47,572 nucleotides of DNA from a virus (taxonomy: Duplodnaviria; Heunggongvirae; Uroviricota; Caudoviricetes), in the IMG/VR virus record IMGVR_UViG_651053023_000010, one strand, 5' to 3'. Made by a program: the position numbers. Below are positions 39,001 to 42,000 of this stretch, one piece after another (position 1 is the first letter of the stretch; each line of letters starts with the position of its first letter).

Positions 39001-42000
39001 GCGAAAGCCCCGAACTGTTGCAGCAGTCGGGGCTTTTTGTTTCTGACCTTGAATAAGGCAAGGAGAAGTCGTGTTTGATTTTAGCAAACTGATTCGGGAG
39101 ATTCGAGTTATGGCTGAAAAATTATCCACCTGGAAGTTTTTGCTTATTTGGTTGGTCTTTCTGATTCTGGCGTCTGGTTATTTTGTTGGCCAGATCCGAT
39201 GGTGGTGAGGGCACGATGAGAACATGGGGCCGCGTCACTGACGCGAACGGCAACAAAAAATGGGTTGCAGTAGAATCTGACACCAGCGGTGATTTCTCCT
39301 ACGGCTGGCTGACGACGCTCATTCAGACGTTAAAGCTGGGGTTGGGGGAGTCGCCGTTTTACGCGAATTACGGCATTCCTGCGCAGCAGTGCATCGTGCA
39401 GCAGATTTACCCGGACTACTATGTGAACATGGTTCAGCAACAGTTTGCCGGGTATTTTGCATCGCTGGCAATTTCAAAGGTAGATGGGGCAGAGAACCCC
39501 ACCTATAACATCGATGTTGTGTTTTTTAACGGAACCAGTTACCGGACGCAGGTTCCGGTTTGAGGCAAGTTTTCGGGTATCAATTGGGCCAGTGGCGTAT
39601 TAAGAAGTTCATCGCGTGGCATGACAATCCATCCACTTTTGCGTAGTAAGTGAATTGCCCATTCTGTGGTTATAACTGAGCCTGATTTGTGGTGCTCAAT
39701 GTGGGTAACCGATCCGTTTCTGACGCGCATGATGATGTCAACATTCAGAGGGGGTTGTGTGCTGGTAGTTTCTTCGCGTAGTTTCTTCTCGCACTCGATG
39801 AAGTATCGGCGGATCTGGCGGCCTTTTTCGTTGCGTTCGACCATAGCCAGCTCTTTGGCGGTGTCCAGGGTGAGATGGTAGTCTTTGGCTGGTCTGCCTC
39901 TACCGATTTTTTCCCGATTTTGGGAAATAATCAAAAAGTCCTGATTTTCTACGAATTCATACTCGCTGATTCGTTCGGTAATCCAAGTGGCAAAGCGTTT
40001 ACCTACTTCGAGAAAGGCATGCAGATCGCGAGCGTTGCATAGAAGGATGGTTTCGTTCGAAATGGTTCCGTTGAACACGGTGATGAGTTGGGTGGTCATA
40101 GTAACCTCTTTTGGCTTTTTTCGAATTGCCACTAACGTAGTGGCGCCGGGAGGTTCGAAACGGCCCAAAAGATACCGCGGACTTATTCCCCTTTCGGGTG
40201 TTGTATTCGTCGCCCTCCCGACATTGATCGGGGTTGTGATCGCACATATTGCCATCACAAAAAAAGGCATAAAAAAACCAACACATTGTAGGGTGCTGGG
40301 TAATCAGCTTTTGGGGGAGGTTTCGACGCCTCATGCGTCCAATCATACTCAACTGGGCGCGGTTGTAAAGTATGAACTTGAACAGACATTAAGAATGGGT
40401 AAAATTTGTCCTCCTGTTTTATAAGGAGATTAAGGATGTCTAAGTTAAAATTATTTGTAGTGTTTACCTTTTTATTACAAATAGGAACTGCGAATGCAGT
40501 ATCTTTTGATTGCTCGAAAGCTAAATCATATTCTGAAAAGTTAATTTGCAACAACAGTGAATTATCTGAACTTGATGATAAATTAAATTCTTTATATCAA
40601 AAAGTAAAGTTAGAGAGCACTGATAAGAAAGCTTTTAGAAAAATTGTTTCAGACTTGTGGAATGAAAGAGAGAAGTGCAAAACAGAATCATGTGTTCGAC
40701 AATGGTATTCTAATGCATTCAGGGAATATTCATCTTTAAATGAAATTAATGAGAACATAATCAATGAATCAGAGAATTACGCTGAATGGTATATTGATGG
40801 TGCGCTGATAATATTACCTCCATTGGAAGGTGTTAGTAAAAATAGATTCCTGATGTATGGCGATGATGGAACAATAGCTATTTTTATTGCTTCAAAATCT
40901 AAAGGTAATGGATTTTGCGATAATTCAGTGCAAATTGATGGCCCATTAGAATATCCACCAATTTTGATTAATGGTGAATATTATAAAACTTATAAATCAT
41001 GCTTTTATGGAAATGGTTTTATAGTGCCAAAAACTGAAATTGGTAAAGCAGTTCTGAAAGAGTTGGTTATGAAAATGAAGCCTATAAAAATTTCTTTTGG
41101 AGACGGCGATGAATTTAACTATCCTCCATCAAATGTAAAAAGAATGCTTGAGAGGGTGGAAAAAATGAAACAGGCAAAATAAGTTAACTTAAAACCGCTT
41201 CGGCGGTTTTTATATAGGGGATATATGTCAGAAATACCAATTACTATGACCAGTGCGGGTGCGCAGCCTACGCCACCCAATGATTTGCTCGCGAATCTTA
41301 TCACCAGAGTTGCTGAAAAAGTACCTGGATATACAGCCAACCTTCCGGCAGGACTTATTACAGACCTTGCCAGCACGGCAGTAGGGGCGCTGGCATTAAT
41401 AGACCAGGCGCGGGTGGACCTTATTAACTCTGTAAGCCCATACGGCGCGAATATTCCGTTACTGATGCAACTCGGAAACATATATGGAGCACAGAAGGGA
41501 TTAAGTACAAATACGGCGGTATACGTGGTGTTTGAGGCGTTACCGGGGTTTGGTATCCCTAAAGGATTTGTGGTTGGTGACGGTAACTACCAGTATGCAG
41601 TTTCCCGCGATACGGTGGTTCCGGAAAGTGGGCAGACTGAACCAGTCTACTGTGTGGCCACTACGTCAGGCTCATGGGCTGTACCGGAAGGGACCGTGAC
41701 GCAGGTCATTACATCAGTACCAAAAGACCAGCCTGTAAAATGCACGAACCTAACCGCAGGGATGCCAGGTCAGGAGGCGCAAACGTGGGCATCTTACCGC
41801 GCCGAAGTCATGGAGTCCGGCATGTTTGGTGTGCAGGGAACACCGGATTGCTTTAAAGCGATGCTCAAATCAGTAAACGGTGTGCGAGAAAACCTGATTT
41901 CTTTTCGGCAGTCGTCGCTGGGGAAATGGGTTGCGGTTGTTGGTGGCGGTGATCCGTATGATGTGGCTTATGCGATTTACAAATCTGTACCGGATATTTC

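Follow-up and report, generated by a model that had tools for sequence, protein, structure and literature searches.

Among the described systems closest to the locus reported here, the gp15 moron of HK97 sits in the tail gene cluster of a lambdoid phage and acts in superinfection exclusion (PMC3594210), Spackle of T4 acts in the periplasm to inhibit the gp5 tail lysozyme (PMC7677548), and Llp of T5 is a further precedent for exclusion (PMC9586334). ScwA, the one enterobacterial LprI-domain protein that has been studied, is a periplasmic protein whose two disulfide bridges are introduced by DsbA (PMC7933661). The locus lies in IMG/VR record IMGVR_UViG_651053023_000010, a stretch of 47,572 nucleotides (nt) of Caudoviricetes DNA that is called the window throughout, and comprises a gene for a predicted exported protein of 248 amino acids (aa), accompanied by an antirepressor gene (ant) on the opposite strand, within the baseplate genes of a temperate myovirus of Escherichia coli. 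The unit that encodes the 248-aa protein is an insertion, is compositionally foreign and has a predicted terminator at its end, and it is nearly certain that its anatomy and status are those of a moron-type insertion in the tail/baseplate operon. The initial annotation of the stretch had also proposed an insertion of this type, and the empty sites in relatives, the foreign GC content and the terminator bear it out.

The site of the insertion was defined through a survey of 80 viral contigs encoding a relative of the neighbouring 115-aa protein plus ten further loci (numbered L003, L004 and so on), in which the V-like spike gene, the 115-aa gene (W position) and the baseplate J gene were located. 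Distant relatives show either a 10-nt overlap or a 2-nt gap between V and W, and in these the W-J gap is 48-61 nt; an empty V-W junction (overlap or <20 nt) was found in 29 of 88 loci and an empty W-J junction in nine of 89, against gaps of 250 nt and 1661 nt, respectively, in the window. Because both junctions are empty in distant relatives, V, W and J form an ancestrally contiguous block and the window carries two insertions, slot A between V and W and slot B between W and J (Table 1). The interruption of the baseplate genes, originally read as one segment of roughly 2 kb, is real but falls into two slots split by a core gene. Per-locus BLAST comparisons show homology across the slot B cargo breaking at 40333-40420 on the left and resuming at 41224/41225 on the right, with the right breakpoint (41224) one base ahead of the J start codon.

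Composition and signals at the ends of the unit agree with this placement. As first noted, the gene for the 248-aa protein is AT-rich, with a GC content of 0.305 compared with 0.478 for the window and 0.49-0.52 for neighbouring genes, and the homologue in L024 shows the same drop (0.35-0.37 compared with flanks of 0.5-0.6). The description of terminator-bounded blocks of tail genes also holds, with one intrinsic terminator-like hairpin 3' of the V-like gene (dG -24.8 kcal/mol, z -4.78, 0/200 shuffles folding equally well) and a predicted hairpin ahead of J (dG -10.3 kcal/mol, z -2.25); equivalent terminators stand just before J after the homologous genes in L009 and L024. A ribosome-binding site and a terminator had been ascribed to every gene in the segment, and while each does have a Shine-Dalgarno-like sequence, no terminator belonging to ant was found. 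Slot B carries two independent units, one on the minus strand in which a promoter-like site and a hairpin precede an sRNA-Xcc1-family RNA and the AntA-family gene, and one on the plus strand with an AT-rich promoter-like region, a strong ribosome-binding site, the 248-aa open reading frame (ORF) and an intrinsic terminator, the layout of a classical moron. The 248-aa protein does not have the distribution of a structural tail component conserved in syntenic phages, as it is present in 8 of the 89 surveyed loci and in 11 of 5426 complete E. coli genomes.

The 115-aa gene, initially counted as a hypothetical gene of the moron, is instead a conserved core baseplate gene and not cargo. Its relatives make up 719 protein clusters across the Enterobacterales, nearly all of 113-117 aa, it keeps its position between the V-like and J genes in all 89 loci, and it abuts V and J in relatives. 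Given where the gene lies, how small it is and that the phage has a sheath gene, the most likely role for the product is W/gp25-like, as a possible sheath initiator. A fold search returned weak matches to gp25-like folds; no GPW_gp25 match was obtained against Pfam at E up to 10, and neither a PDB sequence match nor a sequence family was found.

The 248-aa product begins with MSKLKLFVVFTFLLQIGTANA and continues with VS, and a positive stretch, a hydrophobic core and an A-N-A motif can be read by eye, as expected for a Sec signal peptide spanning aa 1-21 with cleavage after residue 21. No lipobox cysteine occurs in the N-terminus. These features and the conserved cysteines described below fit the earlier view of a secreted protein, which is very probably correct. 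The mature protein can be divided into an N-domain and a C-domain (Table 1). An exhaustive HMMER search of 1.84 billion representatives returned 3466 matches to the N-domain, almost all covering residues ~5-105, and identified it as a widespread module that occurs singly or in tandem and is joined to many different C-terminal parts. Of the four cysteines, C86 is invariant across 54 N-domain sequences and C26, C38 and C81 are nearly so, and the AF2 model of the domain consists of four helices with pLDDT values of 93-97. The N-terminus had been described as DUF1311-like; the four cysteines and a weak resemblance to PF07007 (LprI/DUF1311) stand, though at 16.0 bits (cut-off 22; E 0.016), with a match that spans residues 26-66 and profile positions 1-47 of 106, the protein scores below the family threshold. 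Five of the 54 N-domain relatives match PF07007 at E < 1e-3, with values down to 4.1e-9. Judged by these scores, the 248-aa protein cannot be shown to belong to the LprI/DUF1311 family. The MliC domain (PF09864) was matched neither by the 248-aa protein, at E up to 10 and with HMMER filters that can drop very weak matches, nor by the C-domain homologues.

The C-domain represents an undescribed and very rare family. A profile search of 5.8 billion proteins recovered seven clusters at 90% identity, and a word-indexed search of the same proteins returned its own cluster only. Five of the seven clusters consist of the C-domain alone (140-165 aa), four of these with their own signal peptide and the fifth, P0153, starting at the mature end on a 922-bp contig, while the other two share the N-domain and C-domain layout of the 248-aa protein. 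Residues W118, C161, N179, C189, G192, P198, G203 and L238 are invariant. Searches of phage genomes with C-domain homologues (tblastn) gave marginal Vibrio-phage matches with uninformative context. A scan of genome contigs, pre-filtered by two short peptide patterns and so liable to miss divergent homologues, gave one weak partial match in a Gastranaerophilales metagenome-assembled genome (MAG), which was treated as unreliable. The structural check that had been proposed for the protein was also unproductive, as Foldseek of the C-domain model (pLDDT 30-46) against the PDB returned noise only and the profile comparison gave no significant PDB match.

The distribution of the two domains shows that the protein is modular and that the C-domain can stand alone. 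C-domain-alone proteins (~40% identity) from four divergent phages (P0005, P0152, P0154 and the L024 ORF) carry their own signal peptides, and in each case (P0152 in L009, P0005 in L013, P0154 in L012, and L024) the gene is on the plus strand and comes straight after the region of a 114/115-aa gene. It is immediately followed by J in L009, L013 and L024, while L012, apparently a prophage remnant, has no J gene after P0154. P0099, which has both domains, belongs to a Mu-like tail module, where its gene follows a DNA-circulation gene and the gene for a tape measure with a transglycosylase. A direct case of exchange is seen in E. coli ETEC4090 (L004), which shares with the window the upstream (promoter) region, the signal peptide, the N-domain and the terminator but in which the C-terminal 250 residues are unrelated to the window C-domain; identity between the two proteins drops from 11/20 to 1/20 at about aa 100. 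Because the shared sequence runs up to the N-domain and resumes at the terminator, the difference is a cassette swap at the domain boundary. A second type of C-domain is joined to the N-domain in two myoviruses, Yersinia phage vB_YenM_21.09 and Klebsiella phage Chronis, where the genes are moron-like, low in GC, bounded by terminators and located between a baseplate gene and the tail fibre gene, and the C-domain of Yersinia gp072 recurs in the slot B cargo of L104 without the N-domain (E 1e-27). In a Bordetella prophage, the gene for an N-domain protein lies directly downstream of a CI/Xre-type repressor gene on the same strand, a place where lysogen-expressed genes are typically found.

Slot B is a cargo hotspot. 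Across the 89 loci it holds 25 cargo families of at least 70 aa, including Ant-type antirepressors (36 loci), Bro-type genes (3 loci), a ribbon-helix-helix gene (L104), a 391-aa HSDR_N nuclease-domain protein (21 loci), a YafO toxin (L013 and relatives) and, in the remaining loci, many unrelated genes with a mean GC content of 0.32-0.39, compared with 0.507 for the W and J genes. Most products of these unrelated low-GC genes start with signal peptides, lipoboxes or membrane helices. Under a strict automatic rule, 9 of 21 non-regulatory families are flagged as exported or membrane-bound compared with 2 of 57 other ORFs of the window (Fisher one-sided p = 6e-5), the two flagged ORFs being toxin subunits, and when the rule is combined with inspection by eye ~15 of the 21 families look exported or membrane-bound. 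The exported-looking low-GC proteins received no Pfam or PADLOC assignment. In sister prophages, unrelated genes take the place of the 248-aa gene; the possibility that such cargo consists of diverged C-domain homologues was considered and rejected for rac61, rac62, the 356-aa protein of ETEC4090 and the 179-aa protein of ETEC4085, with profile comparison probabilities of <1%. After ant, the commonest slot B cargo in E. coli relatives is the low-GC gene for the 391-aa protein (L046 6483-7658 (+) and 20 other loci), which replaces ant, matches the type I restriction domain HSDR_N (PF04313, E 5.6e-14) and is a candidate anti-phage defence gene. At 1140-2098 (+) of L013, a metagenomic relative, a 194-aa gene and then a YafO-family toxin gene lie upstream of a Bro-N gene, an sRNA-Xcc1 element and a C-domain-alone gene.

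The 248-aa protein may protect the lysogen, and the part in lysogenic conversion or superinfection that the initial annotation raised is plausible. Transcription of the moron in a lysogen would start at its own promoter and halt at its own terminator, while during lytic growth antiterminated late transcripts, for which the phage has a Q-like gene, would read through it. Such read-through is standard lambdoid logic. Export of the protein would proceed through Sec, and oxidation in the periplasm would then join the six conserved cysteines in up to three disulfides. As other phages have the C-domain by itself in this slot, the LprI-like N-domain is an optional accessory and the C-domain is taken to be the working part. 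The C-domain may then bind an envelope or periplasmic target and protect the lysogen, and the leading candidate for such protection would be superinfection exclusion, with related phages stopped at penetration, either by blocking the receptor or by blocking the transglycosylase-bearing tape measure of an incoming tail. The exclusion reading is suggested by the linkage to baseplate and tail-fibre genes, the place of a relative in a repressor operon, the exported or defence-like cargo of the slot and the precedents in other phages. A protective periplasmic binder or exclusion factor is put forward tentatively, by analogy, as a possible function; the overall explanation, in which moron anatomy, export and a protective or exclusion role are blended, comes close to an even chance.

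A number of observations weigh against this explanation. The signal peptide was judged by eye, and a crude heuristic did not flag the 248-aa protein, which has a Gln in the hydrophobic core. The promoter-like sites of the region carry no statistical weight, with six found compared with 14.0 +/- 3.4 in shuffles. No functional homologue of the 248-aa protein was found, the C-domain has no match in Pfam, NCBIfam or PADLOC and nothing significant in a PDB profile search, and its AF2 model, built on a 54-sequence alignment, is unusable; with no informative homologue or model for the C-domain, the mechanism is argued from context and analogy only. Exported prophage morons can also have roles in host interaction or virulence. 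Finally, the plus strand and the fixed site just before J also permit a role late in the lytic cycle.

The alternatives can be ranked by likelihood as a lytic-cycle role, an orphan immunity function, lysozyme inhibition and a structural role. A lytic-cycle protein could modulate peptidoglycan hydrolases of the host or the phage at lysis or entry, or mask receptors on debris and so spare progeny from being lost. Beyond the position of the gene on the late-operon strand immediately before J, such a role would be in keeping with the control of the level of the lytic transglycosylase MltD by ScwA (PMC7933661), with the transglycosylase domain on the tape measure of the window phage and with the N-domain proteins that are also encoded by T4-like lytic phages. 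Most relatives, however, lack the gene and yet have intact lysis and tail modules, the terminator, low GC content and promoter-like site of the unit fit independent expression, and most other exported slot cargo is antisense to the late operon, all of which leaves a lytic-cycle role rather unlikely. An orphan periplasmic immunity protein, spread by prophages and directed against cell-wall effectors of competitors such as type VI amidases or muramidases, would have a parallel in the signal-peptide DUF1311/LprI-type proteins that are encoded beside type VI effector genes and for which an immunity function has been proposed (PMC12135965), and the exchange of modular C-domains and the fast divergence are reminiscent of polymorphic immunity families. 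There is no effector gene in the vicinity, though, and all C-domain homologues that could be placed are in phage tail modules and not in secretion-system loci; the match to 4nsr_B reflects generic helical-bundle similarity, and the pattern-prefiltered contig scan showed no clear bacterial chromosomal family. On balance the orphan immunity function is quite unlikely.

The initial annotation had offered a lysozyme-inhibitor-like activity as one example of a periplasmic function, and a true inhibitor could shield the peptidoglycan of the lysogen from lysozymes of the animal gut. The RefSeq name ("lysozyme inhibitor LprI family protein"), the weak PF07007 match together with the five relatives that reach that profile, and the gut E. 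coli hosts (pig, goat, cattle, humans) all lean towards this reading. Against it, the PF07007 score is sub-threshold and covers under half of the profile, MliC, which is the inhibiting domain of the Mycobacterium tuberculosis LprI (PMC7933661), is absent, and the Salmonella periplasmic LprI-domain protein ScwA left lysozyme sensitivity unchanged (PMC7933661). The N-domain is also dispensable, as homologues with the C-domain alone exist, and the literature gives no support for lysozyme inhibition by the LprI domain itself. Lysozyme inhibition, which here follows from a family name, is improbable, and the RefSeq name should not be taken as a function. A virion or tail-assembly component would suit the fixed place just before J inside the baseplate block but is most improbable for a protein with a signal peptide, periplasmic-type cysteines and foreign base composition that is found in so few loci, with nine loci holding no gene in the slot at all and unrelated genes, with no profile similarity to it, replacing it in sister prophages.

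Superinfection exclusion can also be taken a step further than in the explanation favoured above. The W-J junction would then be a dedicated hotspot for periplasm-targeted protectors in which a signal peptide, in some cases an LprI-like N-domain, and one of several interchangeable C-domains are shuffled as modules. The rare C-domain, always found beside baseplate genes, would be a new family of periplasmic exclusion factors that keeps phages with the same tail type from penetrating the envelope, perhaps through neutralisation of their transglycosylase-bearing tape measure, as a temperate-phage counterpart of Spackle. This extended proposal is speculative and, taken in full, unlikely.

The minus-strand unit of slot B has its own regulatory features. 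As the initial annotation indicated, a reverse-oriented AntA-like antirepressor is encoded here; the ant product matches PF08346 with 98.3 bits (cut-off 27; E 3.9e-28; profile positions 2-68 of 68) and PHROG anti-repressor families with E values down to 1.5e-67. The ant gene and the 115-aa gene are convergent, with a 25-nt overlap at the ant 3' end. Nucleotide identity to the ant/antB regions of Stx phages is ~79%, and this homology continues through the sRNA-Xcc1 element to position 40332 of the window. That element lies within the 336 nt that separate ant from the exported-protein gene and matches the full RF02221 model (positions 1-87; 72.5 bits, gathering score 53; E 1.2e-12). Elements of the family also occur just upstream of minus-strand ant/Bro-N genes in L004, L006, L013, L033, L038, L074 (two copies) and L080, and were absent from the scanned loci without ant (L009, L012, L024, L046, L072, L083, L086, L098 and L101). 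None was found in L011, a Mu-like contig outside the slot, in L075, where ant is truncated, or in L104, where a plus-strand Bro-type gene stands beside Arc/Mnt-like ribbon-helix-helix genes. A copy in E. coli O157:H7 EDL933 is abundant, poorly covered by ribosomes and non-coding (PMC5331693), and in APSE phages sRNA-Xcc1 lies upstream of a gene with an ORF6N domain (PMC7313666). The RNA family is already known; its pairing with antirepressor genes suggests that it may serve them as a leader or regulatory RNA, which gives the family a concrete candidate role.

The terminator-like hairpin upstream of the element has a dG of -9.1 kcal/mol and a z of -2.6, and in relatives with minus-strand cargo an equivalent hairpin lies downstream of the cargo. 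An inverted repeat, TGTGAT-N13-ATCACA (40235-40259), is situated between this hairpin and sRNA-Xcc1 and could be an operator or a hairpin in the leader RNA of ant. Control of ant by LexA was considered and set aside, with no LexA-box-like site nearby and matches across the window at chance level. Antirepressor modules under RNA control are known from P1/P7, where c4 RNA acts with ant, and from immI of P22. The unit described here resembles both in having an antirepressor away from the main immunity region with a structured RNA directly upstream, and differs from P1/P7 c4 and P22 sar in that the RNA belongs to the Rfam family sRNA-Xcc1 and that its action on ant is putative. In the distant relative L104 (6375-8363), slot B combines a Bro-type gene and a gene for an exported protein with two ribbon-helix-helix genes of the Arc/Mnt type, a layout that recalls P22 immI.

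The window represents a Rac-SA53-like temperate myovirus of E. coli. The region matches Escherichia phage Rac-SA53 with 95% identity and the record of Actinobacillus phage vB_Apl-pPE4 with 99%, the stretch from ant to baseplate J being excluded from the match in both cases, and prophages of E. coli cq9 and U90 are 99.9% identical to it over the full length. The baseplate region of PP818812.1 (L003, vB_Apl-pPE4) is 99% identical to E. coli prophage sequence, and the stated Actinobacillus host looks doubtful; ant in L003 lacks its 5' end, the sRNA-Xcc1 element and the promoter region, with homology that stops at position 40023 of the window. Alongside the sheath gene that marks a contractile tail, the window has a baseplate hub, a J/gp47-family gene (PF04865, E 8.2e-8; phrog_6 baseplate wedge, E 4.6e-38) and tail fibres. 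The V-like product scores 19.4 bits against TIGR01644 (phage_P2_V), which is below the cut-off, shows a weak GpV Apex motif and carries a baseplate-protein annotation in relatives. The 45-aa ORF of slot A matches phrog_6632 over its full length (E 2.1e-28) and has an annotation in both Rac-SA53 and pPE4. Larger inserts occupy slot A in other E. coli prophages, such as STEC005 with a Rha-family gene of 184 aa. The early region, which includes the Q-like antiterminator gene, is of a lambdoid, Rac-like kind, and with its RalA and sok RNAs the phage carries two toxin-antitoxin loci that have RNA antitoxins. The genes for a pertussis-like AB5 toxin, both subunits of which have signal peptides, lie between the Q-like gene and the holin gene. 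In Stx phages the same place is occupied by stx. A second antirepressor-like gene, at 19946-20515 (+), with P22_AR_N and ORF11CD3 domains, is found inside the lysis cassette, flanked by endolysin-like and Rz-like genes.

Table 1. Positions of the features discussed, in window coordinates unless residues (aa) are given
Feature	Position	Strand	Details
V-like baseplate spike gene, 237 aa	38252-38965	+	left edge of slot A
Intrinsic terminator-like hairpin, then U-run	38999-39042	+	3' of V-like gene
Slot A	V-W junction		holds 45-aa ORF
Slot A ORF, 45 aa, one predicted transmembrane helix	39071-39208	+	GTG start, AAGGAG 5 nt upstream
115-aa gene, W position	39216-39563	+	Shine-Dalgarno-like sequence
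Slot B	39564-41224		minus-strand ant unit and plus-strand exported-protein unit
AntA/AntB-family antirepressor gene (ant), 186 aa	39539-40099	-	PF08346
sRNA-Xcc1-family structured RNA	40137-40222	-	Rfam RF02221, 38 nt upstream of ant start codon
Terminator-like hairpin, U7 run after	40278-40299	-	upstream of sRNA-Xcc1 element
Sigma-70-like promoter match TTTACA-16-TATGAT, 10/12	40342-40369	-	towards ant; consensus match only
Sigma-70-like promoter match TTGAAC-16-TAAAAT, 9/12	40378-40405	+	31 nt upstream of exported-protein gene; consensus match only
Exported-protein ORF, 248 aa	40436-41182	+	AGGAG upstream
N-domain of 248-aa protein	aa 22 to ~105		four-cysteine, LprI-like helical
C-domain of 248-aa protein	aa ~111-248		two-cysteine, rare
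C-domain coding segment, swapped in ETEC4090	40720-41190	+	L004 homology covers 39216-40719 and 41191-42500 only
Terminator hairpin AAAACCGC-UUCG-GCGGUUUU, then U	41191-41210	+	15 nt ahead of J start codon
Baseplate J/gp47-family gene	41225-42451	+	right edge of slot B
Tail sheath gene	31779-33116		marks contractile tail
Tape measure gene, C-terminal transglycosylase-like region	34247-36310		residues ~494-669 match transglycosylase families
Q-like antiterminator gene	16371-17033
RalA RNA (antitoxin RNA of RalR toxin)	1557-1735	+	Rfam 204 bits, above gathering score
sok RNA	14771-14944	+	Rfam 97.6 bits, above gathering score
Pertussis-like AB5 toxin A subunit (E. coli)	17421-18146	+	PDB 4z9c_A, full length, 537 bits
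Pertussis-like AB5 toxin B subunit	18157-18639	+	PDB 4z9c_B, E 4.9e-79

Compared with the systems introduced at the outset, the likeness to PF07007 proteins and ScwA lies in an exported helical domain with four conserved cysteines, and some N-domain relatives reach the family threshold, though the LprI-like domain is N-terminal in the 248-aa protein and C-terminal in ScwA. With T4 Spackle the locus has in common a phage-encoded periplasmic protein with a signal peptide that is cleaved (predicted here), and the logic of Spackle could apply, as the tape measure of the window phage bears a peptidoglycan-cleaving domain; inhibition of that tape-measure transglycosylase by the 248-aa protein is a hypothesis drawn by analogy. 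Profile searches with the whole protein and with the C-domain against all PDB sequences gave nothing significant that would indicate homology to Spackle, which is an early gene of a lytic phage, unlike the 248-aa gene of a temperate phage. The closest parallel in anatomy is the HK97 gp15 moron, as both are independent units between two tail genes that are adjacent in relatives, with deviant base composition, their own terminator and an envelope-targeted product. The two show no sequence relationship, and gp15 is an inner-membrane protein of a siphovirus, whereas the 248-aa product is predicted to be soluble, exported and composed of two domains.

At the level of the slot, the comparison is with the accessory hotspots of P2-like prophages, which in work by Rousset et al. 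(2022, Cell Host Microbe) reportedly hold anti-phage systems. PADLOC returned no match for the 248-aa protein. As in the P2-like hotspots, unrelated low-GC cargo, here including the HSDR_N and YafO genes, interchanges at a fixed junction in a temperate myovirus, and the differences are the phage lineage, the use of the W-J junction and the dominance of exported cargo over cytoplasmic defence. Overall, the feature is a textbook moron in a cargo hotspot, ordinary in kind, with an uncharacterised protein family. If the 248-aa protein is a periplasmic exclusion or immunity factor, the W-J junction of several hundred related enterobacterial prophages would be a defined place for further finds, and the protein would add a new family to the short list of envelope-acting superinfection-exclusion proteins.

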